This document shows, piece after piece, positions 25,817 to 53,409 of a stretch of DNA of 64,000 bases. The notes under the pieces are model-generated. The model saw only the letters and a program-made list of their open reading frames with translations, had not been told where the DNA came from and did no database searches. Numbering within the stretch: position 1 is the stretch's first letter; each line of letters starts with the position of its first letter. This stretch comes from an uncultured Gammaproteobacteria bacterium (lineage in GTDB: Bacteria > Pseudomonadota > Gammaproteobacteria > UBA9214), in assembly GCA_963748215.1 (NCBI GenBank), contig CAVVHS010000006.1, positions 640,001 to 704,000 of the forward strand, written 5' to 3'. The position numbers and the translations under genes were made by a program.

Positions 25817-27973
<2,157 letters not shown>

Positions 27974-30528: not shown

Positions 30529-30586
30529 TTTTTAGCCGGGAATGACAGCAAAATGACTTATTGACGCCGGCGGTGGGGATGTCTCG

Positions 30587-30705
30587 CCCGCATTTCTCAC
30601 CGGGCGGCTGTTGACGGACATAATGAATGAAATCATGAGAGTGATGCACATTCAGCAACAAACAATGTGTCATCGGGCGATGCCTATCCCGGTGAGAAAT
30701 GCGGA
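30587..30705. mobile_element. 119-bp MITE (same family as 20781-21275, opposite orientation)
   Basis: TIRs CCCGCATTTCTCACCGGG / CCCGGTGAGAAATGCGGA, flanks CTCG and CTAG, interior homologous to 21176-21257. Confidence 0.85.
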
Positions 30706-30757
30706 CTAGCTTGCCTGGACGGCAAGCAACGGGACGGGGCAACCCGCGCAGGCAGGA

Positions 30758-33019: not shown

Positions 33020-33324
33020 CGTGTGATTGCGGTTGGTGTTATTATCCGGATGGCATCAAGACAGCACTGCCATCGACCGTTCCGTACGCAGGCGCACATC
33101 CTCGTCCGTACCCGGCAATGGCGGCCGGCCGGCAACAGGCAATTCCAGATGATGCGCGTGCTGCTGGACTTGTTATTCCAACGATGTTTTTATTGTTTCA
33201 AGCGTGCCTGAATCTAGCACAGGGTCGCGTGCAAATAAAGTGCGCCCGCTTGGGCGGGCCGCTACCAACGTCAATTCAGTCGGCGCGACAGGTGTGTTGC
33301 GAGACAGACCGGCCTGCGCGGTCG

Positions 33325-38009: not shown

Positions 38010-38248
38010 GGGTGTTGTATTGCCAGCCGCCTCACACACAATGGATCGACGGCTTTCTGGCGTGATACGCGCCGGATCCGTAACGGCACGGCAATGCCGG
38101 CCCTTACAAAGGATATCCATAAGTATATGATTATTCAATATGTTTACAACAGGAAACCTGTTGACAGAACAATCCGGCAAGAAAAAAGGCTGCCCCTTGG
38201 CAGCCTGTATGGATGTTACCGCACCTGCCCGGGCGTGTTGACCGGCCG

Positions 38249-39796
38249 TCAGCGTTGCGCCGATCCGCGTGGGTCGGGTGACGCCTGCGGCGGGGTGGCC
38301 TTGCCGGATTCGACAACCGACAGCGACGCAACCGTGCCGGGCGGCACTGCCGCCACCTTGCCGGACGGGTCGGTGAACGCATCGTTCAGCGTCTGTACAT
38401 AGCGGTTGGCATCGGCGACGACGCGGTGCAGACGCTTGCGGCTGCCCTGCCCCCAACCGACCGGATGCTTCATGAATATACTCAGCCAGGGCCTGGTGTT
38501 GAACAGGAAGGCCCGCGTCAGGCGATTGCGGTAGAGTCCCGGGGCAACCTGCCTCGCGATCTGCTTTACGACATGACCGGCCGCAAGCTTGCGCACCTTG
38601 AAGTGCAACCAGGCAAACACACCGATAAACACCGCGATGAACACCACCATGCCAACCGAATTCGCGGTGGAGCCATGCCACCATTGCGGCCAGGCCCAGC
38701 GCCAGCCGTCACGGAAGCCCAGCACACCTGACATCAGCGTGATCGCGACCATTAGCAGGATTCCCAGTGCGACGTCACCCCACAGCGTCAACTTGCGCCA
38801 CCGTGACTTGTACACCGCCACCTGGGGGACCACCTTTTCCTCGATTTGATGGGCCAGTTTCTCCAGCGCACCGGTGATCCGGTAGGCACGCTCGACATTG
38901 ACACCCTCGATCCGCCGGTAGATTTCCGCAAGGTCGTGATCGCGTTTTGACTCGTAGCGATGGCGCAGCGCCTCGTTTTCAATGGTCACTGCGGCTTCCG
39001 GATTGTAGATACAGTAAAACCGGCCTGCTGAAAGCCCTTCCTGTGCCAGTGCGCGTTGCCAGGCCCCGACCACCTCCTCGGGGTTGTCATCCCGGGCCGT
39101 GGTGTCCATCTGGTTGAGAATGAACAGGAACTTGGTGGCATCGGGGCGGTGAATGGTCTGACCGACCAGATGCGTCAGTGTATCGCGCATCGCGCCGGGC
39201 TCCGGATGCCGGGCATCGAAAAACACCAGCACGAGATCGGACAGGTCGATGATGTGATCGGTCAGGCGCAGGGTTGCGTTGCGTTGCGAGTCCGCGTCGA
39301 AGCCGGGTGAATCAATGATAATGCGGCCGCGCAGTTTTTCGCTGGCGCTGGTTTTCAATTGCAGGTAGGTATCCACGCGGCGTCCTTCGCCACGTGCCAC
39401 GTGCTCGATTTCCTTGCTGATCTGGTAAAACGGGAAGCGCGGATCTGCATCCAGTGCCGTTCCGGGTATGGCCTGTGCGTGACGCTCGCTGCCGTAGCAA
39501 ATAACGGTGAACTTGTCGTCGACGGCCTGATTGCCGGTATTCTGCAACGACTCACCGAGGTAATGGTTGATGAAGGTCGACTTGCCTGCCGAGAACGTAC
39601 CAAGAACGGAAATCATCGGCCACCAGGAAATCTGCGTGGCGAACGACTGCTCGGTGCCGAGCAGGCCAAGCGCGCGGCCAACCCGGTCCAGCTGCTGATA
39701 ACTCTGTACCGATGCCACCAGCACCGGATTTTCCTTGGTCAGATGCTCTTCCAGACTCCTGAGCCGCTGTTTGATGGTTTTCCCCGCACTGGACAT
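38249..39796 (-). CDS. dynamin-like/EHD-like GTPase with two TM helices
   Basis: G1 GTFSAGKS, G3 DSPG, G4-like NQMD, helical stalk, two hydrophobic segments. Confidence 0.85.
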   Translation of the reverse strand: MSSAGKTIKQRLRSLEEHLTKENPVLVASVQSYQQLDRVGRALGLLGTEQSFATQISWWPMISVLGTFSAGKSTFINHYLGESLQNTGNQAVDDKFTVICYGSERHAQAIPGTALDADPRFPFYQISKEIEHVARGEGRRVDTYLQLKTSASEKLRGRIIIDSPGFDADSQRNATLRLTDHIIDLSDLVLVFFDARHPEPGAMRDTLTHLVGQTIHRPDATKFLFILNQMDTTARDDNPEEVVGAWQRALAQEGLSAGRFYCIYNPEAAVTIENEALRHRYESKRDHDLAEIYRRIEGVNVERAYRITGALEKLAHQIEEKVVPQVAVYKSRWRKLTLWGDVALGILLMVAITLMSGVLGFRDGWRWAWPQWWHGSTANSVGMVVFIAVFIGVFAWLHFKVRKLAAGHVVKQIARQVAPGLYRNRLTRAFLFNTRPWLSIFMKHPVGWGQGSRKRLHRVVADANRYVQTLNDAFTDPSGKVAAVPPGTVASLSVVESGKATPPQASPDPRGSAQR

Positions 39797-39823
39797 GGTT
39801 GCCTTCCTTAACTGCAGGTTGTT

Positions 39824-40102
39824 TTAACCCCGGCCGCTGTTCAAGGCCGCTTGCGGCACCTGATTCTCAAGCCGCTGCGCCATCCGTTCCTGCTGGTACG
39901 GGAAGTTGCCACTGACCATCATCATCGGTCCGGTGGTATCGTGCATGGTATGGTTCATGCACCCCGTATCGTTTCTTATGTGGTACATGGGAATCGTCAT
40001 GCCACCGACCCATTGGTTGATGTTCTCCAGCCTGACCGGCAAATGACCCATGTCCCGCGACCCGAAACCGGCATCCGTGGCAATCATGGACTCGCCGGAC
40101 AA
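39824..40102 (-). other. Met-rich short ORF or gene remnant
   Basis: NINQWVGGMTIPMYHIRNDTGCMNHTMHDTTGPMMMV shows periodic Met; co-oriented within the cluster; no clear start. Confidence 0.3.
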
Positions 40103-40178
40103 GCCTCATCAACACGTTGCCCCGGGATATCCGGGTTTCCTAACCTTCATGTTATGGACATTCGTCCGGAAATGCCGT

Positions 40179-40787
40179 TCAGAACTCGCCGTTCGCGCCA
40201 CGGTTCATGATATCGAGAATGATGTCCTTGACCTGATTCGCTTCTTCGAAGAGTTCCGGCGGAAGTTCCTTGCCACCGTGGATCATCATGTCCATGTTGA
40301 GCGTATAGATCCAGAATTTGCCTTCCTTGTCCTCTACCAGTGAAACACGGCATGGCAGGTAAGCAGAAAACGCATCCGAGTATTCGATCATCTTGGCCGC
40401 GGTCAGCGGATTGCAGAACATGTAGATTTTCCAGAAACGCTGCGGCTCACCGGTCATGGTTGCAACCTGCTCCGAGAGAGGCAGCTCGCCGACGTTCTTG
40501 ATGTTGTGCTCGTTGGCAACGAAACGCATGGTCTGTTCGACATCTTCCACGCTCAGTCCATCAGCCACGGGGATCTTCCAGACGGTCGCCTCTGCTGCAT
40601 TACCGCTTTCGAGCAGGTTCTTCGTCATGGTCAGGTACACTTCCGGCGCCTTGTCATCGAAATCGGAAAAGTTGCCGATTTGCTTCAGACCCTGTATTCC
40701 GAAACTGTCACTCATGGCAAGCCATACGACACCGGCAACAAGTGCAAGCCCGGCCAGCGCAAGAAGATTCCAGATTAGTCTGATCAT
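40179..40787 (-). CDS. DUF302 domain protein
   Basis: N-terminal TM, IYMFCNP...AYLPCRVSLVED. Confidence 0.85.
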   Translation of the reverse strand: MIRLIWNLLALAGLALVAGVVWLAMSDSFGIQGLKQIGNFSDFDDKAPEVYLTMTKNLLESGNAAEATVWKIPVADGLSVEDVEQTMRFVANEHNIKNVGELPLSEQVATMTGEPQRFWKIYMFCNPLTAAKMIEYSDAFSAYLPCRVSLVEDKEGKFWIYTLNMDMMIHGGKELPPELFEEANQVKDIILDIMNRGANGEF

Positions 40788-40817
40788 GTTTTTCTCCGGG
40801 TTTTGTATTGGTCAATG

Positions 40818-41795
40818 TCAGGGAGTAGCGGATTCCGCTGCATTGATCTGTTGTTCCAGATCTCCGGCCTGCTCCCCGTTCAGGCCGCGAATCACCTCGA
40901 CCAGCTGACGCGCCCTGTCATACATCCCCTGCGCTGCCAGCCGCGTCCCGGCCTCGTAATACGAGGCGGATGCCTTGTCCCAGTCACCCTGCGAAAAATA
41001 CATGTTGCCGAGTTCGCCATAACCATCCGGATTGCCGGGCTCCAGGGCGATAAGCTCCTGGTATTTCTGTTCGGCAGCCGCGTAGTCCCTGAGCCAGTAG
41101 GCCTCGCGCGCCGCTGCGAGAACCCGGTACGGCGTGACGGCAGGCGTTTTACGCGCAGGGACGGGGGGCGGCGGCACGTCGGGCTCGACAGGGCCTGCGC
41201 CGCCCGCGTCGTCTGGCAAGGGTGTCGCCACCGTTGCTGCAACAGCCGGCTCGGGTGCTGCAGCGTCGATTGCGGCCCTGGCGGCCGGTTCCGGGGCCAC
41301 AATGCCTGTCTCGTCAACCGCCGGCTGCTGTGGAATTTGCTGCGGTTCGGCAACCGGTGGAACGGGTGCTTGCGCTGCCTGCTGTGCAGTGGCCGCGCCC
41401 GCGGCTGCAGTCTCGTCGACCATTTCCGTCACCGCTTGCCCTGCGGCACCAGCATCCTCCGCCGGCATATTCGCTGCAGGTTCGGCGGACGACGGCAGTT
41501 CCGCCGTGCTGCTGTCGCTTGATGCGTAGGGCATGAATTCCGGTTCCGGTTCCGGTGTCGCAGATTCATCAGCAGTGACATCACTGCCAGCCGGCTGTGC
41601 CGGCACTGAGATCGCAGCCTTGCCGCTGTCTGCCTCCCGGCTTCCGGCGCTTTCGCCCGGCTTGTGCCCAAGCGACAGAAAATCCGGCAAATCATATTCC
41701 GAAAACAGTTCACCCCGGTAGATCAGCCCGATTGCCAGTAGCGCGACCACGACCAGCGCAAATCCATGGCTCAGGATACGTGCGAAGAGATTCAT
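40818..41795 (-). CDS. membrane-anchored Pro/Ala-rich protein with C-terminal TPR
   Basis: TM helix, low-complexity linker, AREAYW...PGNPDGYGELGNMY. Confidence 0.8.
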   Translation of the reverse strand: MNLFARILSHGFALVVVALLAIGLIYRGELFSEYDLPDFLSLGHKPGESAGSREADSGKAAISVPAQPAGSDVTADESATPEPEPEFMPYASSDSSTAELPSSAEPAANMPAEDAGAAGQAVTEMVDETAAAGAATAQQAAQAPVPPVAEPQQIPQQPAVDETGIVAPEPAARAAIDAAAPEPAVAATVATPLPDDAGGAGPVEPDVPPPPVPARKTPAVTPYRVLAAAREAYWLRDYAAAEQKYQELIALEPGNPDGYGELGNMYFSQGDWDKASASYYEAGTRLAAQGMYDRARQLVEVIRGLNGEQAGDLEQQINAAESATP

Positions 41796-41815
41796 TACCT
41801 TGCTCCTACTTCCGG

Positions 41816-42478
41816 TTAATTCAGTCTGCCGGCCACTTCGGGATAGAGTGCCGATGCGAGCACGCGAAATTCATTGGCGGCCTTGCTCTGCGGCCACATT
41901 TCAAACACAGCCAGACCTTCGCTCAATGAACGCCTGAAACTGGTGCGCATTTTCAGCCGCTGCGGCAGCACCTCATCGATTCCCGGCAACATGCGCAGCG
42001 CTGCTTCGGTTTCATGCGTCTCGCGTATCGACTTGTTGGTGTCCGCACGATTGACGAATGCCATGGTCCTCTGCCTGCCATTCATTTTTACCGCTTCCAG
42101 ATCGGGGCCGAGAATATGCAGGAATCGTTGCGTCGCCCAGACATCCGCCTGGCTGGGCGGCACCGGGATGAGAATCCTGTCAGCCGATGTCATGGCCTCC
42201 TTCATCGCCGCCATGTTCGCCGCGCCAACATCCACGAGGACTTCGCAATCCCGATGCGACATGAGCTGTTCACTGAGTACCGCACGGACCGAATGTATCG
42301 TCAGGTCCGGCCGGATACCGATTTCGCGCCGCAGGCCGCCCAGGTCGCTGAATGTGCATTGCGGGTCGAGATCATAGCCAACGACACGGCGGCCATTTCT
42401 CTCCAGCCACACCGCAAGATTGAATGCGACGGTACTCTTTCCCGAGCCACCTTTCAGATTTGCGATTACAGTGATCAT
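41816..42478 (-). CDS. small ParA/MinD-family ATPase
   Basis: NLKGGSGKST deviant Walker A, DLDPQ, ILIPVPPSQAD; no parB adjacent. Confidence 0.88.
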   Translation of the reverse strand: MITVIANLKGGSGKSTVAFNLAVWLERNGRRVVGYDLDPQCTFSDLGGLRREIGIRPDLTIHSVRAVLSEQLMSHRDCEVLVDVGAANMAAMKEAMTSADRILIPVPPSQADVWATQRFLHILGPDLEAVKMNGRQRTMAFVNRADTNKSIRETHETEAALRMLPGIDEVLPQRLKMRTSFRRSLSEGLAVFEMWPQSKAANEFRVLASALYPEVAGRLN

Positions 42479-42544
42479 TGCCCGAGTCCGAACCCTCCTG
42501 AAAAATGGTTTGACTGCAGGCTCAGCACCCGCGTCAACGCGACG

Positions 42545-43306
42545 CTAGTTCCCACTGCCTTGCGGCATGCTGATCTCCTTGTAGCCAGCGGGGACAGAGA
42601 ATAATTCAGCAGGCTGTGCCTGCTGCTTGATATTGATCAAATTCCGTGTGAATCCACCGGGCTGTTCCTCGCTGATAATCATCTGCAGTGCCGGATCATA
42701 CCACTGGTATGAAACCATGCTCTGGCCATTGGTATAGCTGGCGGACATTTCCCACTTCTCGGCGCTGCGGCCGTTGACCTGCTCGACGCCCAGCATGCGG
42801 GCCTCCATGGAAGAACCGTCCGGCATGACCTGGCGTACCGGTATCCGGCGCTCCTCGTCGAGCCAGAACTGCATACTGCCACCCTCACCGCTTGCGACGC
42901 TGCTCACTTCCCATTTCCTGGCCTTGCGACCGTTGACGACCTCGATACCGCCCTCTTTGCATGTCAGGTTCTGCATACCCGCGCAGGGATTCCCGTCGGA
43001 TTCTCCCGTGCCCTGCTGCATCATATCCTGCTCTCCCGCATGCCTGTGCATGTAGGACTTCTCGGCAGGATTGATAATCACCGCTTCCTGTCTGTCCAGG
43101 TCGATGATCTGGATAATATTCTGTCCATTCATATCATACTCTGTGCGGACCTTGTTCTTGCCGATATACAGTTTGCCTGTGTGCTCACCCTGCTGCGGGT
43201 GGGATTCGACAGTATCCGCTGAAAATTCGACAACCGGTTGTGCCGCCGATACAGGCTGAATCGACAACACCAGTACAGTAAACAATGAAAGCAAAATGGA
43301 TCGCAT
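42545..43306 (-). CDS. periplasmic DUF4412/LolA-like repeat protein
   Basis: Signal peptide; duplicated G.E.VNGR.A.KWE motif; ELFSVPAGYKE C-terminus. Confidence 0.7.
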   Translation of the reverse strand: MRSILLSLFTVLVLSIQPVSAAQPVVEFSADTVESHPQQGEHTGKLYIGKNKVRTEYDMNGQNIIQIIDLDRQEAVIINPAEKSYMHRHAGEQDMMQQGTGESDGNPCAGMQNLTCKEGGIEVVNGRKARKWEVSSVASGEGGSMQFWLDEERRIPVRQVMPDGSSMEARMLGVEQVNGRSAEKWEMSASYTNGQSMVSYQWYDPALQMIISEEQPGGFTRNLINIKQQAQPAELFSVPAGYKEISMPQGSGN

Positions 43307-43353
43307 TTCGTGTGCCCTCTGGTTCACTTTTTTACTGGCCGTGATTGTAAAAG

Positions 43354-43391
43354 AAACGAGCCAAAACACAGTAATGTGTTTTGGCTCGTTT
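43354..43391 (-). terminator. intrinsic terminator after the sgp genes
   Basis: 17-bp stem AAACGAGCCAAAACACA/TGTGTTTTGGCTCGTTT with a U-rich tail on the minus strand. Confidence 0.8.
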
Positions 43392-43404
43392 ACATGTCTA
43401 ACTA

Positions 43405-43812
43405 CTACCTGGCTTCGCCAGCGGGAGCTGCCGGGGCTGCCGGGGCACCGTAGCCATACGGTGCGCCACCACCATAGCCGCCGGGATAACCGCCATAGCC
43501 GCCAGGATAGCCGCCATAACCGCCATAACCGCCACCAGGATAGCCACCATAGCCATAGCCAGGATAGCCGTAGGGGCCATAGCCGCCGTAGCCATAGCCA
43601 CGACCATAGCCACGACCATGGCCACGACCGGAACCACCACCGCTCATGTTGAAGTCCATATCACCCCAACCATCACCGTCGAAGGGGCCCCAGTCGGAAC
43701 CCCAGTTGTCACCACCGCCCCATGGACCACCGCCCCAGGCATGGGCGGCCATAGGTGCAGCCATCAAGCCGGCAACGGCAGCGGCACACAGAGTTTTCGT
43801 TACTTTCTTCAT
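43405..43812 (-). CDS. sulfur globule protein (SgpA/SgpB, CV1/CV2-like)
   Basis: Signal peptide [12 protein letters not shown]...[17 protein letters not shown], then Gly/Tyr/Pro repeats. Confidence 0.85.
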
Positions 43813-43945
43813 TTCACTATCTCCTGATTATTGTGCTTACAAGTCATCTTGCAAACAATTCTCCCCTTTCAAATGAAACCAGCAGCCAAAGGGAGGAAGC
43901 ATTGCTGATCAACAAAAGACTTTGTTTACTGCGTGCAGGTCACCG

Positions 43946-44320
43946 TTACCAGCCGGGACCACCATAGCCACCGCCGGGATAGCCACCACCATAGCCACCG
44001 CCGGGATAGCCACCACCATAGCCACCGCCGGGATAGCCACCACCATAGCCACCGCCGGGATAGCCACCGTAACCGTAGGGGCCATAGCCGCCATAACCAT
44101 AGTTACGGCCATAGCCACGACCATAACCGGAACCACGACCACCGCCGCTCATGTTGAAGTCCATATCACCCCAACCATCGCCGTCGAAGGGGCCCCAGTC
44201 GGAACCCCAGTTGTCACCACCGCCCCAGGGGCCCCCACCCCAGGCATGGGCAGCGGAGAAGGGCAGCGAGATCAGGCCGGCAACGGCAACGACACGTAAA
44301 ACCTTGTTAACCACTTTCAT
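43946..44320 (-). CDS. sulfur globule protein paralogue
   Basis: Same WGGGPW...DFNMSGGG core; GGYPGGGYG repeats; GAGG RBS. Confidence 0.85.
   Translation of the reverse strand: MKVVNKVLRVVAVAGLISLPFSAAHAWGGGPWGGGDNWGSDWGPFDGDGWGDMDFNMSGGGRGSGYGRGYGRNYGYGGYGPYGYGGYPGGGYGGGYPGGGYGGGYPGGGYGGGYPGGGYGGPGW
43959..44066. repeat. 27-bp tandem repeat x4 in the second sgp gene
   Basis: CCACCATAGCCACCGCCGGGATAGCCA, four perfect copies. Confidence 0.95.
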
Positions 44321-44372
44321 CGGGTACAACCTCAATCTGTTGAGAAAAAACCGCAATATTCGATTGCGGGTG

Positions 44373-45062
44373 CTACCAATAATATCCGGGTGTTGCATTA
44401 TTCAGGGTTGTACCGGGCTGTCCTGAATTCTGTCCGGTATAGCCATTGTACGCAGGCGGATTCAAGCCCGGCTGCTGGCCGGGCATCTGCCAGGTATCCA
44501 TACTCTGACCTGCTGCGGCATTCCCGTCCCGGGAATTGCCCGGCACGCCCCACGGCCTCTGTACCGGCTGGTACTGCGGTTGCGCCGGGTAAGGCTGGTA
44601 CTGTGGCGCAGGCTGGTATGGCTGCTGGTATTGCGGCGCGGGCTGGTAGGGTTGTGGCTGCACGACCGGTTGCTGCATCGGGGTCTGTCCGTATCCGCCC
44701 CAGCCGCCGCTGACGGGATACTGCGGCATCCCCTGCTGTGCAGGATACGGTGCCGGCTGCCAGGCCTGGCCGGTGGGAGCGTAACCCTGTCCGTACTGTG
44801 CGGGGGGCGCAGCCGTTATCTGCTGTTGCTGCATACCCTGTCCTGGAGCCGGTGGAAATACGTAATACGGCGACTGCTGATGCTTGGGTGTCGGGTACCA
44901 TTCCCTGACCTGTATCGAAGCGTCCGGTTGCACGGACTTATCCTGTGTTGCCGGCATGTGTTCAGGCTCATCTGCTGCACAGGCGCTAACCAGTAAGACG
45001 GCGACACAAACAAGTAATCTTGATATTTTGCAATTGACAAATGGAACTGTCTCCTGATTCAT
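44373..45062 (-). CDS. Pro/Gln/Tyr-rich lipoprotein
   Basis: Lipobox LVSAC; QPYQPAPQY repeats; RPWG motif. Confidence 0.75.
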   Translation of the reverse strand: MNQETVPFVNCKISRLLVCVAVLLVSACAADEPEHMPATQDKSVQPDASIQVREWYPTPKHQQSPYYVFPPAPGQGMQQQQITAAPPAQYGQGYAPTGQAWQPAPYPAQQGMPQYPVSGGWGGYGQTPMQQPVVQPQPYQPAPQYQQPYQPAPQYQPYPAQPQYQPVQRPWGVPGNSRDGNAAAGQSMDTWQMPGQQPGLNPPAYNGYTGQNSGQPGTTLNNATPGYYW

Positions 45063-45095
45063 GTCATCACTGTTGACCGGAAAATCACACCCATA

Positions 45096-46364
45096 CTACC
45101 GGTAACCCTGCATTGGAGCCTGCGGATACTGCATCGAGTCATAGACAGGTGGGGGTGGCACGTTCAGCTCATCCGGCCTTGCCTGTCCGCGGGGATAGCC
45201 ATAGGCCGGCATATTCCTGTAGCCAGGCGCACCTGACTGGTAGGGATAACCGGGGGCCTGGTAATTGTATCCCGGACCCGCGGGTGGCATGGGACGGCCA
45301 TAATAGCCGGCCGCCGGTGCGCGATCGGCAGCCTGTCCCTGCAACGGTACCGCAGGACCTGGCGCTACCGGCGTTTCCGGTGCCATGCGGCCTGCGGCCG
45401 GCGGCATCATGTGATCGTAATCGCCCGGCATGGGCGGCTGGAACAATGGCTGTTCGCGGCTGGCTGTCGCAGGCTGTTCGCTAACCGGCAGTTCCGGCAT
45501 AGTGCCCGCCACCGGTGGCGCAGGAATCGCTTCCTGTCCTCGTGGCAGCTGGCCTGTCAGTGTATCAGCTGCTGCGGGAACTTGCTCTGTCAGGTGCGGT
45601 TGCGTGACCAGAGCTGGCGGCGACGCGGGCTGTACCGGGGTCTGTGGTTCTTCACTCACCGCCAGCGGTAACGTCGGCGCGTCGTGTCCCGGCATGGATG
45701 GCGTGCCGGCAGTGTCTTCAGTCGCCACCGCGGCAGCCGTTTCGGCAGACGGCTGTTCCATGTCTGTGCCGGCCGTTACCGGCATCCCAGGTACGTGCTC
45801 CGGCACTGCAGCCTTCGCCTGCCCGGCGGCAGTTTCCGCATCGCTGGCCGCGGCTGTCGCCGGCGCTTCGGGTGCGTCTGCTTCCATGGTCACTCCCGTC
45901 TCGACGGTTTGCTCCTGCTGTACAGTCATGGCCTCATCCTCGCTGCGGCTTTCAGCCGTGACTTCCTTCGCCGGCTGTGACATGTCCGACTGGTAATGAC
46001 CGGGCACGGGCGGCATGGTCCGAGTCTCGCCAGGTGTGGCGCTGGTCATGATTTCAGGCGCCGACTGTTCGGCTGCCCCACCGGGCACACCGCCAACCAT
46101 GGTGCCTTCAGGAAACAATTCCTGTTCAGCTTGTTGCCGCGGCATAGCCATTGGCACCTGGGTAATCGTAGCGGGCCCCGGTACGCGCGGATCGATATTG
46201 ACCGGCTGATAGGGACCGGCTGGTGGTGGTGCAGATACCAGCGACCATTCATCGCTGTACTTGAACGGTGTCTCCGGTTCCTCGGCATGTGATACTTGCA
46301 GCAGGAATACGGCAGCCAGCATCAGCAGCAGATGCGTTCCCCTGAGACGACGATTAGCGTTCAT
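45096..46364 (-). CDS. exported Pro/Ala/Glu-rich low-complexity protein
   Basis: Signal peptide SHA-E; PPPAGPY..VNIDPR N-terminal motif; Tyr/Pro-rich C-terminus. Confidence 0.75.
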   Translation of the reverse strand: MNANRRLRGTHLLLMLAAVFLLQVSHAEEPETPFKYSDEWSLVSAPPPAGPYQPVNIDPRVPGPATITQVPMAMPRQQAEQELFPEGTMVGGVPGGAAEQSAPEIMTSATPGETRTMPPVPGHYQSDMSQPAKEVTAESRSEDEAMTVQQEQTVETGVTMEADAPEAPATAAASDAETAAGQAKAAVPEHVPGMPVTAGTDMEQPSAETAAAVATEDTAGTPSMPGHDAPTLPLAVSEEPQTPVQPASPPALVTQPHLTEQVPAAADTLTGQLPRGQEAIPAPPVAGTMPELPVSEQPATASREQPLFQPPMPGDYDHMMPPAAGRMAPETPVAPGPAVPLQGQAADRAPAAGYYGRPMPPAGPGYNYQAPGYPYQSGAPGYRNMPAYGYPRGQARPDELNVPPPPVYDSMQYPQAPMQGYR

Positions 46365-46431
46365 ATCAATTCACCTTGATTCATATTGAGTAACAGCGTG
46401 GTTGTCGCCCTGGCCGATCCACATCCAAAGC

Positions 46432-49400
46432 TTAGTTCAAATCCTGTTTCAAGCGTATACCGCGCCGCTTTGACCCGACAGTATCCTGTACTTCCGCATC
46501 GGCATCATCATCCACATCCATGTCGGTCATATCGCGTGCCATCCTCACCGGTTCCGCTTCAGTTGCTGGCGGCTCGCTGATCGCGGCAGGCTCTGCTGGT
46601 GGTGGCGATGTCACTTCGGTGGCTGGCTCCTGAGTCCCGGCAGACAGGGCACTGGCAGTTTCGACCGGCGTATCGGCTGGCTCGACGGTTGCCGGAGTCT
46701 CCGCTACTGGCAACTCGCGCGGCGGCGGAGCACTGACTGGAGCGGCTGGTGCCTCGCGCGGTGGCGGAGCACTGACTGCAGTGGCAGGCGCCTCGCGCGG
46801 TGGTGGGGCACTGACTGGAGGAGCTGGTGCCTCGCGCGGTGGCGGAGCACTGACTGCGGTGGCGGGTACCTGGCGCGGTGGCGGAGCACTGACTGCAGTG
46901 GCTGGTACCTCGCGCGGCGGCGGTGGCGTACCAGCCGCGGCGGGCGCCGGCTTTTCACGCGGCGGTGGCGGCGTACCACCGGGCGGCGGTTGACGCGGCG
47001 GTGGCGGTGTACCTCCGCCTCGTGGCGGCGGCGGTGTACCGCCCCTGGGTGGAGGTGGTGTCCCGCCACCCGCCTTGCCAAATCTTCCGAAAATTCCCTT
47101 GAATCCCATACCGATCAGGGTAAAGACGGCCTTGATGATGATAAAGACCCAGGAGAATGCCGAGAAGATTCCACCCCAGAGACGCATCAGGAGCGGTGTG
47201 CGTGCCGCCTTCTCCGCGGCCTCGGCTTCATCATCGGTATGTTCGATGATCTGGAAGGCGCGGCTTATCGACACGGTGCCATCATCAGCCGTCTCAACAT
47301 AGAACTGCCGCTTCGCGCTGATACAGCCGAGCGGCACGATAATCAGTGCCATGACGGTCGCCACGCCGGCACCGAACAGCAGGCTGATTGCCATACCGTT
47401 AAAAATCGGGTCCTGCAGGATGGCAAATGCGCCCGCCATCAGGGTCAGCGAGGTAATGAAGATGGGACGCATACGCATTTCGGCGCCCCTGACGGCTGCC
47501 TCAGTGACCTCTTTCCCCTGGGCAACCTCGATCTTGACAAATTCCACGATCAGAATCGACTGGCGCACGATGATACCGCCCAGCGCAATCATGCCTATCA
47601 TGGAGGTGGCCGTGAATTCCGAACCCATTATCCAATGACCAGGGATAATGCCCATGAGCGTCACCGGGATCGGCGACATGATGATGCCGGCCAGGGCGAA
47701 GTTCTTGAACTCCCACACGATCAGTCCGTAGATCAGGATCAGTGCCGCCATGAAGGCGCCACCCATATCACGGAACGTTTCGTAGGTCACCGTCCACTCG
47801 CCGGTCCACTCGAAGTGAGATTGCGAATCATCCTTGATCAGTTCGAGCAGGGTGATCGGCATGGTGGGCATTTTCACCCCGTCAGGTGTCACATACTCCT
47901 TGACGTAATCATCGATAGCCAGCATGCCGTAGATCGGCGCACCCAGTCTGCCCTGCATCTCGCCGGTGACATACTCCACACCGCGCAGATCGATGGTGTA
48001 GATGGTTGGGTCTTCGTATTCTTTACTGAACGTCCCCAGCTCTGACAGGGGTACGGTCCGGCCATCCGCCGTCGGCACCGGCAGGTCGCCCAGCCGCGTG
48101 ACCTGCGAGCGTATCGCCAATGGAATCTGCATGACGATATAGGTCGGCTCCAGCACGGTGCCGCGCTTGATGTCGCCCAGCTTGTAGCTGCCCATGGCCA
48201 TCGCCAGCGTGCCGTTGATGGTATCGACCGATATTCCACGCCGGACGGCCTTTTCGGTATCGACATCGAAGCGCCAGAACTCGTAGGGATCGGCCATGTA
48301 AGTGTCGACATCGACAACATCCTCAACGGCTTCGAACATGGCTGTCAGGTCAGTCGCCACCTGGCGGCGTGTCTCGGCATCCGGTCCGTAGACCTCGGCA
48401 ACAACGGTTTGCAGTACGGGCGGACCTGGCGGCATTTCGACGACGGCTATCCGCGCGCCCAGGCGGTCGGCGATCGGTTTCAGTATCGAGCGCGCAACCA
48501 CGGCTATCTCGTGACTGCCACGCTCGCGATCGTTCTTGTCTTTCAGCATGACCAGCAGGTCACCTTCCCACGAACGCTGCCTGAGGTAGTAGTGCCTTAC
48601 CATGCCGTTGAAATTGAATGGCTGCGCCGTTCCCGCATAGGTAACGACCGCGGTGACTTCCGGTATTTCCTTGACTGCCTCCGCCAGCGACATGACGACA
48701 TTGGCAGTGTCCGGCATGGCCGTGCCTTCCGGCATATTCACGATGACGGAGAATTCCGGCTTGTTGTCGAACGGCAGCATCTTCACGGCCACCTGCTGGG
48801 TGTAGAACGTCACGCAGAGACCGGCGGTTATGCCGATGACCAGAAACAGGAACAGCAGTCCGAGTTTCCGGTTGTTGATGAGCGGCATGATAATCGGCCG
48901 GTAAAATCTGCTGATGCGCTCGTGGGCCCGCTTTTCCTTTTCTTCTGCACGTTTCAGTGCAGCATGTCTTGGCGCCAGCTTGACCGCCATCCAGGGCGTG
49001 AAGATGAACGCGGCGACCAGTGAAAAGAACATGGCAGAAGAACCCAGCACGGGTATCGGCCGCATATAGGGCCCCATCAGGCCGCTGACCCAGCCCATCG
49101 GCAACAGGGCCGCGATAATGGTGAATGTTGCCAGAATGGTAGGATTACCCACCTCGCGTACGGCATCGATCGCAACGGCGACACTGGTTTTGCCCTTGAG
49201 GAGCCAGTGCCGGAAAATATTCTCGACGACCACGGTCGCGTCGTCGACCAGGATACCGATCGCAAAGATCAGTGCGAACAGGCTGACACGGTCGACAGTG
49301 TAATCCACCATCATTGCCCACCAGATGGTGAGCAGAATCACCACGGGGATAACCGCGATAACCACGATCGCGGCACGCAGCCCCAGGCCGACCAGACACA

Positions 49401-50541
49401 GTATCGCAACGATGGCCGCTGCTTCCAGCATGGCCTGCAGCAACTCGTTTACCTTGTCATCGGCGGTCTTGCCATAGTTGCGCGTCACCGCGACATTGAC
49501 ATTGGCAGGTATCAGGTCGCGCTTCAGCGCCTCCACCTTGTCCAGGATTTTGTGCGCAACAGTGACGCCGTTGGTGCCTTCCTTTTTTGCAATGGCAACG
49601 GTAACCGCCGGATTACCAATTGACGGGCCGGTATCGCCGTCATAGGCCGGCCCGGTGTAATAGGTAACCATCTGGCTGGGATCCGCCGGCTCATCGACAA
49701 CCCTGGCAACATCCCGTACATAGACCGGCGCGCCCTGGCGGATACCGATAACCAGTCGGCCGATCTCCTTGGCACTGGTCAGAAAGGAACCGGTTCGTAC
49801 CGTAAAGGCCAGGCCACCTGACTCGACGCCGCCCGCCGTCTGCTCGGAATTGGCCGTCTGTATGGTCTGCGCGACCTGTTGCATGCTGATGCCATAGCCT
49901 GACAGGCGCTCCGGCATGACCTCGACCTTGACCTGGTCCTCGCGCCCGCCGACGATGAAGCCCTTGCCGGCGCCTTCCACCTCGCCGAGGCGTTGCAGCA
50001 GGTCCAGGGAGAGGAGGCGCAAGGCGCCATCATCGATATCTTTCGACCATAGCGTCAATGTCACAATCGGTACATCGTCGACCGCGACCGGCTTGATCAA
50101 TGGCTGTTGTACGTTGGGGGGTATCTTGTCCATATTGGACATGATCTTGTCGTGCACCTTGACGATGGACTGGCCCATGTCCTCGTTCACCTTGAACCGG
50201 ACGGTAACCATCGCACGCCCGCGTTCAGTGGCCGTGTAGGTATGACGTATTCCCTGGATTTCCTGCAACAGTCGTTCCAGTGGTTCCGTGACCAGACTGG
50301 CAACCTGTTCCGCGGAGGCGCCCGGATACTGGACGAACACGTCGATCATCGGCACCGAGATTTGCGGATCTTCCTGACGCGGGGTAAAGAACAGACCAAG
50401 CAAACCGACCAGCAGGGATACAATCAGTATCATGGGCGTGACCGGCGAGGTAATGAACAGCCGCGCCGTTCTGCCAGCGATACCCAGCGAATGGGCATCG
50501 TAGTTAACCGGTGTGGAGAATTGCTTTTCTTGATCAGCCAT
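46432..50541 (-). CDS. RND family permease with long Pro-rich C-terminal extension
   Basis: PRQEDPQI, GILVDDATVVVEN, KMLPFDNKPEF, RMRPIFITS; ~290 aa tail with tandem repeats. Confidence 0.93.
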   Translation of the reverse strand: MADQEKQFSTPVNYDAHSLGIAGRTARLFITSPVTPMILIVSLLVGLLGLFFTPRQEDPQISVPMIDVFVQYPGASAEQVASLVTEPLERLLQEIQGIRHTYTATERGRAMVTVRFKVNEDMGQSIVKVHDKIMSNMDKIPPNVQQPLIKPVAVDDVPIVTLTLWSKDIDDGALRLLSLDLLQRLGEVEGAGKGFIVGGREDQVKVEVMPERLSGYGISMQQVAQTIQTANSEQTAGGVESGGLAFTVRTGSFLTSAKEIGRLVIGIRQGAPVYVRDVARVVDEPADPSQMVTYYTGPAYDGDTGPSIGNPAVTVAIAKKEGTNGVTVAHKILDKVEALKRDLIPANVNVAVTRNYGKTADDKVNELLQAMLEAAAIVAILCLVGLGLRAAIVVIAVIPVVILLTIWWAMMVDYTVDRVSLFALIFAIGILVDDATVVVENIFRHWLLKGKTSVAVAIDAVREVGNPTILATFTIIAALLPMGWVSGLMGPYMRPIPVLGSSAMFFSLVAAFIFTPWMAVKLAPRHAALKRAEEKEKRAHERISRFYRPIIMPLINNRKLGLLFLFLVIGITAGLCVTFYTQQVAVKMLPFDNKPEFSVIVNMPEGTAMPDTANVVMSLAEAVKEIPEVTAVVTYAGTAQPFNFNGMVRHYYLRQRSWEGDLLVMLKDKNDRERGSHEIAVVARSILKPIADRLGARIAVVEMPPGPPVLQTVVAEVYGPDAETRRQVATDLTAMFEAVEDVVDVDTYMADPYEFWRFDVDTEKAVRRGISVDTINGTLAMAMGSYKLGDIKRGTVLEPTYIVMQIPLAIRSQVTRLGDLPVPTADGRTVPLSELGTFSKEYEDPTIYTIDLRGVEYVTGEMQGRLGAPIYGMLAIDDYVKEYVTPDGVKMPTMPITLLELIKDDSQSHFEWTGEWTVTYETFRDMGGAFMAALILIYGLIVWEFKNFALAGIIMSPIPVTLMGIIPGHWIMGSEFTATSMIGMIALGGIIVRQSILIVEFVKIEVAQGKEVTEAAVRGAEMRMRPIFITSLTLMAGAFAILQDPIFNGMAISLLFGAGVATVMALIIVPLGCISAKRQFYVETADDGTVSISRAFQIIEHTDDEAEAAEKAARTPLLMRLWGGIFSAFSWVFIIIKAVFTLIGMGFKGIFGRFGKAGGGTPPPPRGGTPPPPRGGGTPPPPRQPPPGGTPPPPREKPAPAAAGTPPPPREVPATAVSAPPPRQVPATAVSAPPPREAPAPPVSAPPPREAPATAVSAPPPREAPAAPVSAPPPRELPVAETPATVEPADTPVETASALSAGTQEPATEVTSPPPAEPAAISEPPATEAEPVRMARDMTDMDVDDDADAEVQDTVGSKRRGIRLKQDLN
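46714..46908. repeat. 39-bp tandem repeat x5 encoding (A/V)PAxxVSAPPPR(E/Q)
   Basis: CTCGCGCGGTGGCGGAGCACTGACTG... units at 46714, 46753, 46792, 46831, 46870. Confidence 0.9.
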
Positions 50542-50689
50542 ACTTATATTCCGCCTTCTAGCGTGCTTTTGTCAGTACCACATTCGAAGCTTGTTTCATG
50601 CCGGTACCGATTCGCTGCCTTATTATTCGGGTTAATCATCCAGTCCGGATAGCGCATACCGTTCCAGTCAGATTGCCCCCCTTGCCCGG

Positions 50690-51829
50690 CTAGTTCCAGG
50701 AACCCTTTCTGTCGCCGGATTCCGCTCCCGTGACGAAAACACGTTCACCGGCACGCAAACCGGAGAGAATTGCGACACCTTCGGCACCGACGTCGTCGCC
50801 GGTCCTGACCAGGCGCAACTCACGCTGGTTCTGCTCGTTCATCACGTAGATGCCCGGCAGACTGCCGCGCCAGACCAGTGCACTCTTGGGCACTACCGGT
50901 AATTCACGCACCTTGGCATTGATATCGTTGATCATGACGTCTGCATACATGCCTGCACCACCCGGCGCACCGGCAGGCAGGTCGAGCTTGACTGTCACCG
51001 TGTGCCGGTCCGGGTCGGCGATCGGGAAAATCGTGGCAACGCGGGCCTGCACATTGACATTACCGACGTCCAGCCGCGCCGGCACGATCATGCCTTTCTT
51101 GATGCCCGGCATCAGCCGCGCCGGCACCTCGATCTGAATCTGCAGTTGGGACATATCCGCAAACTTGAGCAATGGCTGGCCGGGTTGCACGGGATCACCC
51201 ACTTCCACCAGTTTTTTCGTAATCACGCCCTTGAACGGCGCAACGGACTTGGCATCACGAATCTTGGTATCGATTTCCTCGATACTGGCACGGGCACCCT
51301 CGAGCGAGGAGCGTGCCTGCTCGATCTGCGTACCGTACTGGTAAAGCTGTGCATGACGGTCCATGCCGGGCGAACTGCCACCGGAAAAACTCTGCATCGG
51401 GTTGGTGAAATTGCGCATGATGGAACTCATGCCGCCCATCATTTCGTTCTCCTGACCACCATAGGGTGAAATCCACTCGCGTGAGTACTGAACCCCGGCG
51501 TTGCGAAACGCCGCCTCGGCATTGGCCAGATTTGCCCAGGCCGCACGACGCTTTGCCAGCAGGTCATCGATGCCAATGGCGATCAATTCGGTGCCTTCCT
51601 CGAAGAAATCGCCTTCTTCACCGGCGATGCTGCTGATTCGTCCGGGAATCTGCGCCGAGAAGGTCACATCCTTGATCGGAACAACCGTGCCGCCCAGGCT
51701 GACGGTTGCGCCCACCGGGATACTCGGAACCGTAATGACAGAGTCACCGGGTCCCTGTGCATGGGCGATCTGCGCAACTGTAAAACAGGCAGTTAAAATT
51801 CCAGCCAGAGCATACTTTTTGATTAACAT
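50690..51829 (-). CDS. RND periplasmic adaptor (membrane fusion protein)
   Basis: Lipoyl-like halves (SAQIPGRI...GD; APFKGVI...VGDPVQPG), beta-barrel, GLRAGERV. Confidence 0.92.
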   Translation of the reverse strand: MLIKKYALAGILTACFTVAQIAHAQGPGDSVITVPSIPVGATVSLGGTVVPIKDVTFSAQIPGRISSIAGEEGDFFEEGTELIAIGIDDLLAKRRAAWANLANAEAAFRNAGVQYSREWISPYGGQENEMMGGMSSIMRNFTNPMQSFSGGSSPGMDRHAQLYQYGTQIEQARSSLEGARASIEEIDTKIRDAKSVAPFKGVITKKLVEVGDPVQPGQPLLKFADMSQLQIQIEVPARLMPGIKKGMIVPARLDVGNVNVQARVATIFPIADPDRHTVTVKLDLPAGAPGGAGMYADVMINDINAKVRELPVVPKSALVWRGSLPGIYVMNEQNQRELRLVRTGDDVGAEGVAILSGLRAGERVFVTGAESGDRKGSWN

Positions 51830-52020
51830 GGTTAATCCTCACACAACAAATAAAAAGGCACGGTCAGGTCCAGCAATGAAGCATGCGGCGCTGTCCGAAG
51901 ACAGCGCCAACCTTCCCAGGTTATTCATGACCGAAACGTGCCGTTCTGGTCACCATGAGGCTGCAGAACCCGATTAAATTTATTGTTATCTACACACCTG
52001 AAAAAAAGCGCCGGTACAAA

Positions 52021-52416
52021 TCAGGCGCGACCCATTACCGAAAAACTCTTGATGAACGGACCAGCCATGCGCGGATCCTTGATCATCGCACCGTAATCAC
52101 CGACATTGAACTTCAACTTGCGCGATGTATAGGCCATGCCCAGCCCCATCATTCCCGGCGGCTTGACCAGCCATTTGTTCCAGTTATCGAAGGTAGCGCG
52201 CAGGTCCCAGCTCAACTCCTCACCATTGAAGGTACCTGCCGAGGTTGCCTTGCCGTTTTCTATCTTGATGTAACCCCGCGGCGTGTCCTCACCGTCGAAT
52301 CCATACGCAATCGTGGAATTGAAGTTGATCTTCGCCAGAGCATCCGAAAGCTCCGGCTCAGCATTCCATTGCTCCATGAAGCTTTTCATCCACTCGTCAG
52401 AAAACAGATCAGCCAT
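52021..52416 (-). CDS. SCP2 sterol-carrier-like protein
   Basis: LFSDEW...WN, WDLRA...W, AYTSRKLKF..GD; GGAGG RBS. Confidence 0.8.
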   Translation of the reverse strand: MADLFSDEWMKSFMEQWNAEPELSDALAKINFNSTIAYGFDGEDTPRGYIKIENGKATSAGTFNGEELSWDLRATFDNWNKWLVKPPGMMGLGMAYTSRKLKFNVGDYGAMIKDPRMAGPFIKSFSVMGRA

Positions 52417-52938
52417 TTTTTTGTCTCCTCCAGGTTAATGGTATATTATCCAAGTATATTGCGAGTGTAACAAGCGAATCATACTAGATATGGGGTTCAA
52501 CCCAACACGCCTTTTACACAATTAGTGATCTTTGTGCCCATCCGGGGCACGTGCATCGTCGTCTATTGAGGACAAGTACAATACCCAATTCACATAATAT
52601 GTCTCAAAAGTCAATAAGAGAAGAAAATTATAGAGACTTTTGTATAAAGCTCCGCTTCGTTGCCCCTGCCTTTTCAGCCTGTTAGAAAACTGCAGCCAGA
52701 AAATTTATCACTCGGCTCAGGTACCCCTGCATGTATCCTCTTGATTGAACTGAGTGAATACGCCGCGTACTGTATCGCCGATGTGACGGAATGTTGACTA
52801 GATTAACATATTGGCATAAAAATAGGGTTGTGGCGTACCAGAAAAGTACAGCGTCCGTATAAGAAACAGTAGGTTATTGGATAGGGTATGTACTTTGCCT
52901 TGAAAACGATATCAAAAAGACAACAGGATGAGCGGAAA

Positions 52939-53409
52939 ATGAACCCTGGACAACAAAAATTCGACAGCAGAGCAATCGAGCAGCGCGATTCCAATCGCCG
53001 CAACCCGTCACTGTCCACGTTGCAGGGTGCGCTGTTTCTGAATCGACGTCGCCTGTTCCGGCGTGGCGAGGATCATGTTAATTCCTACAAGGATTGGCAT
53101 GGCCATTTACCGCTCGCTGCCACCCTGCTCATCATCCTGCTCTGTTTTGCGGACGCGTTTCTTACCACCGTGTTACTGGACAAGGGTGCGGTGGAAATGA
53201 ATGTGTTTATGAATTGGCTGATACAGAAAGACATCCATGCATTCACCATCGTCAAGATGGCACTCACCGGCACCGCACTCCTGGTGCTGGTGTTTCATTA
53301 CAACTTCATGATTTACCGCTATATTGCTGTCAAGTACGTCATGTTTGCACTGGTCCCGGCCTACATGCTGCTGATCTTGCATGAACTGAACATGCTAGCC
53401 AACTTCTAG
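52939..53409 (+). CDS. DUF5658-like membrane protein
   Basis: N-terminal EQR..NRR/RRR motifs, DAFLT..LL..GA.EMN..M..LI, three TM helices. Confidence 0.7.
   Translation: MNPGQQKFDSRAIEQRDSNRRNPSLSTLQGALFLNRRRLFRRGEDHVNSYKDWHGHLPLAATLLIILLCFADAFLTTVLLDKGAVEMNVFMNWLIQKDIHAFTIVKMALTGTALLVLVFHYNFMIYRYIAVKYVMFALVPAYMLLILHELNMLANF

Follow-up and report, generated by a model that had tools for sequence, protein, structure and literature searches.

A conserved gene module of sulfur-storing Gammaproteobacteria joins a tagged RND pump, a ParA-type ATPase and a dynamin-like protein and may service sulfur globules

According to PMC10386293, the known machinery of sulfur globules is as yet limited to the Sgp coat proteins. 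The same paper reports that sgpD of Allochromatium vinosum adjoins a gene for an exporter of hydrophobes or amphiphiles, forms its own transcription unit and is dispensable. Partners of ParA/MinD (A/D) ATPases, as described in PMC10241942, dock via a positively charged disordered peptide. Here we describe a row of 13 genes from an uncultured gammaproteobacterium in which Sgp-like proteins are encoded between an RND pump and a ParA-type ATPase, and in which the pump ends in a short motif that may dock on the ATPase. The row occupies positions 38249 to 52416 of a 64,000-nt stretch of contig CAVVHS010000006.1 (assembly GCA_963748215.1), and this whole stretch is called the window below. The best explanation, which we advance with modest confidence, is that the genes form a module that services periplasmic sulfur globules via a ParA-tagged pump.

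All 13 open reading frames (ORFs) lie on the minus strand in the same direction, with intergenic gaps of 20 to 191 nt. An earlier note on this DNA had read them as a cluster for the biogenesis, loading and positioning of sulfur globules. The array exists as it described, and its family assignments hold, either by Pfam and NCBIfam or, for the SCP2 and LolA-like proteins, by fold. The genes and the pump motif are as follows.

52021..52416, minus strand: g1, cytosolic protein of 131 amino acids (aa) with a predicted SCP2 fold
50690..51829, minus strand: g2, RND periplasmic adaptor (membrane fusion protein, MFP); TIGR01730 145.9 bits (cut-off 94.9), HlyD_D23
46432..50541, minus strand: g3, AcrB-type RND permease, 1369 aa; ACR_tran at residues 27-1070, E 9.5e-146
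46447..46467, minus strand: RRGIRLK motif near the g3 C-terminus, proposed ParA docking tag, from tail alignment, co-variation and complex prediction
45096..46364, minus strand: g4, exported low-complexity protein rich in Pro, Gln, Tyr and Ala, 422 aa; signal peptide read from the sequence
44373..45062, minus strand: g5, putative lipoprotein rich in Pro, Gln and Tyr, 229 aa; lipobox-like LVSAC
43946..44320, minus strand: g6, SgpA/B-like Gly/Tyr-rich exported protein, 82% identical to g7
43405..43812, minus strand: g7, SgpA/B-like Gly/Tyr-rich exported protein; PF17228 at 22.8 bits, under the cut-off
42545..43306, minus strand: g8, periplasmic DUF4412 protein; DUF4412 44.2 bits (cut-off 21.6)
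41816..42478, minus strand: g9, small ParA/MinD-type ATPase, 220 aa; CbiA, AAA_31 and MipZ matches
40818..41795, minus strand: g10, N-terminal transmembrane (TM) segment, low-complexity linker and C-terminal TPR; TPR families at residues 226-283
40179..40787, minus strand: g11, TM-anchored DUF302 protein; DUF302 47.8 bits (cut-off 23)
39824..40102, minus strand: g12, 92-aa remnant of a Met-rich TM family, matching only the C-terminal ~65 residues of its relatives
38249..39796, minus strand: g13, dynamin-like protein (DLP); Dynamin_N 55.6 bits (cut-off 27)

The host order comprises 54 species genomes in one family and six genera. At 19 of 20 loci fetched from it, both halves of the array were found in order, and the unrelated flanking genes SpoT, DUF5658, YiaD and DUF1631 were syntenic as well. 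Since these flanks are equally kept, synteny within the order alone proves little, and it agrees with a chance juxtaposition kept by shared descent alone. Outside the order, however, the flanks differ and the DLP gene has moved and been inverted, while the core is still adjacent in dozens of lineages, and we find chance scarcely credible. The DUF5658 membrane-protein gene itself (window 52888-53409, plus strand) is divergent from g1 at every locus of the order and was not found beside the cluster in other lineages.

With a profile of g8, relatives of 36-46% identity were found in Thiocapsa (T. marina 5811 and sp. KS1 among them), Lamprocystis purpurea, Thiodictyon, Thioalkalicoccus limnaeus and other metagenome-assembled genomes (MAGs). 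ParA follows DUF4412 at 19 of the 25 loci examined. Where the flank allows, MFP and RND genes precede it, and the DLP gene is divergent and upstream of the pump, not at the opposite end of the cluster. No cluster partner was seen beside six more distant DUF4412 relatives (22-32% identity); one of them, L118, showed only an unrelated RND match of 24% identity. A DLP profile yielded at least 493 relatives, and among the best 80 loci, for which neighbourhoods were examined, 68 had at least one partner gene. When only the 36 of these 80 with at least 8 kb on both sides were considered, 29 had partners, 25 had both RND and ParA, and seven were solitary. Bearers of the DLP cluster include Ca. Thiodiazotropha, Sedimenticola, an endosymbiont of the tubeworm Escarpia, Thiococcus pfennigii, Thiohalobacter and Thiohalomonadaceae. 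Across distant lineages the linked set consists of SCP2, MFP, RND, the exported low-complexity proteins, DUF4412, ParA, the Met-rich TM protein and DLP, in two layouts, one colinear as in the window and one with DLP divergent from SCP2-MFP-RND.

A linkage that outlasts relocation and inversion of the DLP gene argues for a functional unit, and we consider it very likely that the core genes form one functional module. The earlier note's view of them as a unit is thus borne out across orders; this is not a chance row. In many Chromatiaceae-type clusters the Met-rich gene is followed by a gene of ~306 aa, 60-81% identical between clusters (L112:12175-13098, L157, L176, L189-L194, L199, L200), which is putatively 5'-nucleotidase-like. 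DLP relatives of 53-55% identity are solitary in L181 and L184 (Vicinamibacterales MAGs) and in L190 (a MAG labelled Deltaproteobacteria); these relatives labelled outside Gammaproteobacteria could reflect transfer or mis-binning.

Co-occurrence with globule genes was scored in a stratified sample of 401 genomes of the class, 400 of which could be used (G603 was not scorable for DLP or dsrB). A sulfur globule protein (SGP) was counted at a PF17228 E-value of at most 1e-5, and DLP and dsrB at E-values of at most 1e-60; G395, G497, G651 and G663, all with DLP and without SGP, were counted in the tallies only and contributed no loci. Both SGP and DLP were present in 41 genomes, SGP alone in 6, DLP alone in 41 and neither in 312. 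DLP thus occurred in 41/47 genomes with SGP compared to 41/353 without, a difference for which a Fisher test overstates the signal because the sampled genomes are kin. Among genomes with dsrB, DLP was found in 36/41 with SGP and in 20/79 without. In one genome with SGP and no DLP (G036), the contig that bears the pump half stops short of the DLP position.

The globule genes are also close to the module. A PF17228 gene was located within 5.5 kb of DLP in 8 of the 41 genomes that have both, representing eight GTDB families, against a chance expectation of 0.4-1.3. Above-cut-off sgp genes lie between RND and DUF4412/ParA in G400, G466, G499, G537, G551, G669 and, in the genus of the host, G051; in G440 an sgp gene is 0.4 kb downstream of DLP. 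The earlier note had proposed such profiling of co-occurrence and synteny, with homologues occurring mostly without sgp and without synteny as the outcome that would speak against it. This is not the case, and its link to globule genes stands. That the module is tied to sulfur globules by co-occurrence and by interleaved sgp genes is well supported, and it seems moderately likely to us that the module serves them.

To the extent that genomes with DLP and no SGP could be compared, the whole module and the bare DLP part company. In ten such genomes with dsrB, the cluster was found in seven and a solitary DLP in three; in ten without dsrB, the DLP was solitary in eight and had cluster partners in two (one of them a genome 72% complete). 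The full module therefore follows dsr-type sulfur oxidisers and the bare DLP is distributed more widely.

In all lineages inspected, the slot between RND and DUF4412/ParA is occupied by one or two low-complexity proteins that are exported. In the window, g6 (for which 44320 is the better start) and g7 have Sec-type signal peptides ending in AHA, followed by WGGGPWGGG and GYG repeats, as read from the translations; judged by eye, both show the Sec signal and the Gly/Tyr-rich repetitive mature part of SGP-type proteins. The positional orthologue of g7 in the same genus (L044:6836-7219, G051) passes PF17228 with 58.7 bits. BLASTP gave no alignment between g7 and this orthologue, probably owing to the low-complexity filter, and unfiltered BLAST gave 36.6 bits. 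Neither g4 nor g5 belongs to any family in a Pfam scan, and conservation of g4 within the order is limited to the N-terminal ~60-80 aa. Slot proteins of Chromatiaceae, Sedimenticola and Thiodiazotropha carry repeated [YF]R[FW]RP-type motifs: those at L124:2920-3546, L127:1115-2155, L159:2865-3500 and L200:3394-4080, among others, are rich in Pro, Arg, Tyr and Gly and have 2-5 [YF]R[FW]RP-like copies, against a shuffle mean of at most 0.23 in a test that is descriptive only, the motif having been defined post hoc from sequences seen. Zero copies of it are present in g4 and g5.

The ATPase g9 has Soj and ParF as its closest solved relatives, and there is no ParB-like gene beside it. Its deviant Walker A motif, LKGGSGKST at residues 8-16, fits the pattern xKGGxxK[ST], and residues K9, G10, G11, G13, K14, S15 and T16 are invariant in the ParA alignment; with 120.7 bits it is below the cut-off of the ParA_partition equivalog NF041546 (180 bits). 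The partner we propose for g9 is the pump. Permease g3 extends beyond its membrane domain into a Pro-rich, disordered cytoplasmic tail of ~300 aa, which cannot be aligned between lineages except at its end, [RK]RGIRL[KM]. There, tail positions R35, R36, G37, I38 and L40 are invariant in 21 tails.

Presence of this motif was compared with presence of ParA at 51 loci where the sequence continues for at least 6 kb beyond RND on its downstream side, 50 of which were assessable (the tail of L109 is N-masked). The motif was found in 44/44 clusters with ParA and was absent from 6/6 without it (L132, L163, L166, L217, L228 and L230), with no discordant locus; the variants RRGIRLM (L093) and KRGIRLK (L243) were recognised by eye and counted as the motif, both having been missed by a stricter pattern. 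In L132 and L163 the RND protein lacks the whole tail. When 42 RND cores were placed in a tree, the two clusters without ParA that were retained fell on separate branches, L132 being sister to L093, which has both ParA and motif.

A complex of two ParA copies, two ATP and the last 45 residues of g3 was then modelled. The score was 0.65 (runs of 0.62, 0.65 and 0.65), compared to 0.00 for the best of three controls, and the verdict of the prediction tool was in favour of binding; in calibration the mark was reached by 58/80 solved complexes and 2/110 mismatched pairs, counts that hold only roughly here because our own alignments were used and ATP rode along. Contacts agreed between runs by at least 56%, with a partner pLDDT of at least 45. 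On the tail side, the predicted interface comprises residues 35-41, which are RRGIRLK, and residue 44. These would touch one ParA copy at 108-110, 113-114, 117-118, 121, 152-153, 156-157, 160 and 163-164 and the other at 45, 49, 53 and 186-188, and among these contact positions D45, P108, S109, Q110, W114, Q117, R118, E153, E156, A160, S186, E187 and G188 are invariant in the ParA alignment. The predicted contact fits the known docking rule of ParA/MinD partners, and it is likely, in our view, that ParA acts on the pump through the RRGIRLK tag. The earlier note had suggested that an orphan ParA positions the globules. The idea of a positioned cargo gains concrete support from the co-variation and predicted contact of the tail motif. 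The other steps proposed in that note, namely S8 or polysulfane as the cargo, its passage across the inner membrane by this route, nucleation of the coat, membrane shaping by the dynamin and spacing of the globules, stay at the level of inference.

Candidate transcription signals, all of them consensus matches only, were found at the following positions.

52445..52473, minus strand: promoter-like site 5' of g1
44397..44424, minus strand: promoter-like site of g6
44351..44369, minus strand: terminator-like hairpin downstream of g5, immediately ahead of the sgp genes
43827..43855, minus strand: promoter-like site of g7
38187..38206, minus strand: terminator-like hairpin after g13, with an 8-bp GC-rich stem followed by a T run

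These sites suggest three transcription blocks, namely g1-g5, then g6 and g7 each with its own promoter-like site, and g8-g13. Contigs of four sediment RNA libraries, 90-99% alike, fall on g1-g5, g10 and g11 and bridge g5/g4 (44852-45435) and g11/g10 (40512-41051), which is compatible with transcription. Stretches without such contigs, e.g. 38284-38904, are not evidence of silence. The bin at 43252-43872, which contains g7, had the highest summed RNA-contig depth in all four runs (309, 204, 80 and 73), with the joints and loose ends typical of repeats common to the sgp genes of several organisms; as this depth may stem from many organisms, no ranking of expression was drawn from it.

The division of the array by two terminator-like sites into g1-g5, the sgp genes and g8-g13 would also suit a different arrangement, in which DLP, ParA, the TPR protein and the Met-rich TM protein make up a membrane-remodelling or division unit and the pump operon and sgp are mere long-standing neighbours. 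The solitary DLP of many genomes and the separation of the two halves in the closed genome G014 point the same way. We nevertheless judge this improbable: the co-variation of ParA and tail (44/44 and 6/6), together with their predicted contact, ties both halves to each other, and the DLP-MFP-RND linkage outlasts inversion of DLP relative to the pump.

The pump itself has the features of an AcrB-type transporter. Against PF00873, g3 gave 487.5 bits over model positions 3-1014 of 1021, consistent with the full-length 12-TM architecture; its closest solved relative is 6vej (231 bits), and overall identity to AcrB is 22%. At the proton-relay sites (AcrB D407, D408, K940, R971 and T978), g3 and four relatives have D, D, R, R and T, K940 being replaced by Arg. 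As the relay residues are kept, the pump looks active. No NCBIfam subfamily cut-off is reached by g3: its best match, NF033617, gives 439.8 bits where 1250 would be required. The cluster contains no gene for an outer-membrane factor; the rest of the genome was not searched for TolC-like genes.

Genes for two putative carriers flank the pump. For g1 there is no Pfam or NCBIfam match, and the Pfam SCP2 model is silent too. Its AlphaFold2 model (pLDDT 92.9), however, is best matched in Foldseek by the SCP2 protein of T. thermophilus (2cx7, E 1.7e-7, TM-score 0.77), with UbiJ-SCP2 next; 20 PDB matches had an E-value of at most 0.001, and most of those listed are SCP2 or UbiJ-SCP2. We are confident, on the strength of this model, that g1 has an SCP2 fold with a predicted hydrophobic tunnel. 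Its identity across lineages is 62-88%. On the periplasmic side, the AlphaFold2 model of g8 (better start 43306; pLDDT 82.3) has LolA3 as its best Foldseek match (9tp6, E 1.2e-8, TM-score 0.45), besides RseB, NE2245 and LolA, and g8 is accordingly predicted to be a half-barrel of the LolA superfamily, the TM-scores being moderate. Two of its cysteines, C108 and C116, are invariant. When g1, DUF4412 and DUF302 were compared with solved structures by sequence, no informative match emerged. SCP2 and LolA-like folds indicate a hydrophobic ligand, and no more than that.

Among the membrane-associated proteins, g10 is conserved in its relatives at the N-terminus and the TPR and variable in the middle. 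The full-length form of the Met-rich protein found elsewhere (~175-184 aa) has a TM segment and Met-rich repeats, and the relatives of g12 are ORFs of 167-182 aa, except in L048 with 78 aa. As a family of ~165-190 aa (e.g. L112:11576-12121 and L144:477-995), the Met-rich proteins accompany the cluster in most lineages, with a single TM segment (RWELIVYPSLFAFIILAAYGFYL-like), Met/Asn/Ser-rich repeats and an end in ...FMPW. They have no Pfam family; the Atlas gives unnamed clusters only, and DUF948 is sub-threshold (19.7 vs 37.2 bits). The G1 (GTFSAGKST) and G3 (DSPGFD) motifs of g13 are invariant, as befits a Dynamin_N G domain, and two hydrophobic segments lie at about residues 338-400. The closest solved relatives of g13 are EHD4 and EHD2, by the G domain only, in a match of ~70 residues.

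The Met residues of this family raise the prospect of Cu/Ag-type heavy-metal efflux, with the Met-rich protein as a metal chaperone, and the secondary matches of the adaptor g2 to CzcB/NccB and to a CusB-type barrel-sandwich domain agree with it. Yet g3 scores higher with the multidrug-type model (439.8 bits) than with CusA/CzcA (237.3 bits), the Met-rich gene has decayed in the window and is missing from several relatives that keep the pump, the distribution follows dsr and sgp, and a metal efflux system would have no use for ParA, DLP, SCP2 and LolA-like components. Metal efflux is highly improbable on these grounds.

The main rival is a system for hydrophobe export or detoxification co-regulated with sgp. 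Under this explanation the genes would provide envelope lipid or hydrophobe transport, or detoxification, in sulfide-exposed bacteria, and sgp would be adjacent only through shared induction by reduced sulfur. The pump would export a lipid, a quinone or a hopanoid-like molecule, or would rid the membrane of dissolved sulfur or of organic polysulfanes, and ParA and the dynamin would see to pump placement and membrane repair. SCP2 (including UbiJ) and LolA folds do carry lipids, the pump is an ordinary AcrB-type exporter with its proton relay intact, and sgp is elsewhere in most Chromatiaceae-type clusters. In the window each sgp gene is preceded by a promoter-like site of its own, and a terminator-like site lies ahead of the pair. 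According to PMC10386293, sgpD of A. vinosum, beside an exporter gene, is a separate transcription unit whose downstream neighbour is not regulated by sulfide. The terminator repeat of sgpD printed in that paper was also used as a query, and its only match was a chance one in a Bradyrhizobium MAG.

Against such a detoxification system, every lineage inspected has either Sgp or exported proteins of coat-like, low-complexity type encoded in the slot from RND to ParA, and the full cluster tracks dsrB, which the solitary DLP does not. Moreover, we know of no precedent for a ParA tag on a housekeeping efflux pump. We regard this rival as rather unlikely.

Returning to a module that services sulfur globules, we propose that the array is one copy of a conserved module of dsr-type, sulfur-storing Gammaproteobacteria. 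Its core would be the AcrB-type RND pump with its adaptor, flanked by a cytosolic SCP2-fold and a periplasmic LolA-fold carrier, and the slot between the pump and the DUF4412/ParA genes supplies exported low-complexity proteins and, in several lineages, bona fide Sgp. ParA most likely binds RRGIRLK of the pump tail across the ATP dimer interface, so that the pump complex, with whatever is attached to it in the periplasm, would be the ParA cargo. A membrane-inserted dynamin-like GTPase, the TM-TPR and TM-DUF302 proteins and the Met-rich TM protein (decayed here) would complete the module. The pump would move hydrophobic cargo between the inner membrane and the globule, its loading sites would be kept distributed along the cell, and the dynamin may handle the membrane that wraps the globule. 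Candidates for the cargo are zero-valent sulfur, an organic chain-terminating or surfactant component, and a lipid; for the direction, globule loading or return of sulfur to the cytoplasm.

A fuller version can be formulated, which we offer tentatively and consider rather doubtful. The module would then be the missing apparatus for trafficking and positioning of globules, in which a ParA-tagged RND pump under each globule passes zero-valent sulfur or a chain-terminating component between the LolA-like and SCP2 carriers, either loading the globule or supplying the rDsr pathway of the cytoplasm from the stored sulfur. Spacing of the sites over the nucleoid would fall to ParA, and the dynamin would give the membrane pocket its shape. 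If true, this would be the first ParA system with a trans-envelope pump and an extracytoplasmic inclusion as cargo.

Several observations weigh against a role in globules, in either form. The evidence for every step is genomic or in silico, not experimental. Shared ancestry of the genomes confounds the association with SGP and dsr; 26/82 genomes with DLP have no dsrB match, including the window's own genome, in which dsr is split by a frameshift, 6/47 genomes with SGP have no detected DLP, and the solitary DLP of genomes without SGP and dsrB, given above, belongs here too. With 22.8 bits, g7 is under the PF17228 gathering cut-off of 26.7 bits, and g6 has no match. Pfam-level sgp lies outside the cluster in Thiococcus, Thiocapsa marina, a Sedimenticolaceae MAG and a Ca. 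Thiodiazotropha MAG, and the cluster of G045 lacks both DUF4412 and sgp.

Other points concern the integrity and the operation of the module. The Met-rich gene is decayed in the window genome. In G014, a closed 2.6-Mb genome of the same family, RND matches cover residues 1-303 only (L237, C1:309000-328900) and the SCP2-MFP half is ~250 kb from the DUF4412...DLP half (L050/L123); this split and truncated pump reflects either natural loss or misassembly. AcrB-type pumps export and the cluster has no outer-membrane factor gene, so that the proposed destination of the cargo is tentative. The RNA-library contigs give no strand, level or proof of a single transcript, and DNA carry-over is possible. 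The calibration of the complex prediction, as said, is rough.

The host genome (3.5 Mb in nine contigs) represents an uncultured gammaproteobacterial order. It has soxB above cut-off, a frameshift-split dsrA (C6:353160-354375) and five Sgp-like loci in all; the single Pfam-level sgp elsewhere in the genome is a paralogue on C9 (PF17228 59 bits). Outside the array, the window contains housekeeping genes (trp, leu, secDF, queA/tgt, flagellar regulators and SpoT). Among them, tgt (25817-26921) is apparently split in two overlapping ORFs, one of which matches only the first 120 of 357 profile positions. The tgt and dsrA splits look like indel errors of the assembly, and single frameshifts should for that reason not be over-read. 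A protoglobin-GGDEF-EAL gene (30758-33019, minus strand) adjoins FleQ-, FlhG- and FliA-like flagellar regulators (28693-34746), the FlhG-like one (29418-30305) being the second ParA/MinD-type gene of the window. ORFs of 522, 482, 323 and 324 aa at 13900-15468 (plus strand), 59686-61134 (minus strand) and 20280-22197 (minus strand) have no Pfam family at an E-value of at most 1e-5; some family-less long ORFs of the window may be non-genes in high-GC DNA.

A literature search returned no paper linking sulfur globules with dynamin, RND, SCP2 or ParA, although A. vinosum omics and supplements may hold relevant data; the nearest statement in print that was met is the position of sgpD beside an exporter gene in PMC10386293. 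In the literature searched, there is thus no description of the module or of an RND pump that bears a ParA tag. The questions on which the module would bear are how globules are built, kept separate and wrapped in membrane, and how water-insoluble sulfur returns across the inner membrane to cytoplasmic Dsr. By uniting a pump and two hydrophobe carriers with a positioning ATPase and a dynamin, and by its interleaving with sgp genes, it offers a short list of targets for knock-out and localisation, and cultured purple sulfur bacteria that bear it include Thiocapsa marina, Thiococcus pfennigii, Lamprocystis purpurea and Thioalkalicoccus limnaeus.

How, then, does this locus compare with known systems? 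The earlier note had likened it to a magnetosome island, and by analogy organelle structural genes would stand with membrane-remodelling and positioning factors in both. Unlike magnetosomes, sulfur globules are periplasmic inclusions, there are no common families beyond a loose TPR/ATPase parallel, and the organelle link in the window is a genomic one. Like SgpA/B/C/D of A. vinosum, g6 and g7 are Sec-exported, small and Gly/Tyr-rich, and a positional orthologue passes PF17228; they differ in that g7 is below the cut-off and g6 has no match. With bacterial dynamin-like proteins and eukaryotic EHD ATPases, g13 shares the Dynamin_N G domain with G1 and G3 (EHD4 and EHD2 being the closest solved). 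It differs from them in being short (~500 aa) and in having, as its sequence predicts, two hydrophobic segments instead of a paddle.

The pump resembles AcrAB-type tripartite systems in its full-length ACR_tran permease, MFP adaptor and conserved proton relay. Unlike in AcrAB, g3 has a tagged tail of ~300 aa, no outer-membrane factor gene is in the cluster, and genes for SCP2- and LolA-fold carriers flank it. Our working analogy has been the NPC1/NPC2 sterol hand-over, in which a eukaryotic RND protein works with a soluble lumenal carrier, and the LolCDE-LolA route; the module would likewise pair a membrane transporter with soluble hydrophobe carriers on either side.

Like McdAB of carboxysomes, ParC/ParP of chemoreceptor arrays and PomXYZ, the module has a small deviant-Walker-A ATPase without ParB. 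It would also share with ParA/MinD cargo systems the disordered basic peptide borne by the cargo, here predicted to dock on the ATP dimer, a principle set out in PMC10241942. In the window, however, the tag is C-terminal on an integral RND permease and not N-terminal on a soluble adaptor. Whatever its connection with sulfur, the RRGIRLK tag would broaden the "luggage-tag" principle of ParA, since the tagged protein would be a membrane transporter and the tag would lie at its C-terminus, and the cargo would be a trans-envelope pump, perhaps together with a periplasmic inclusion.

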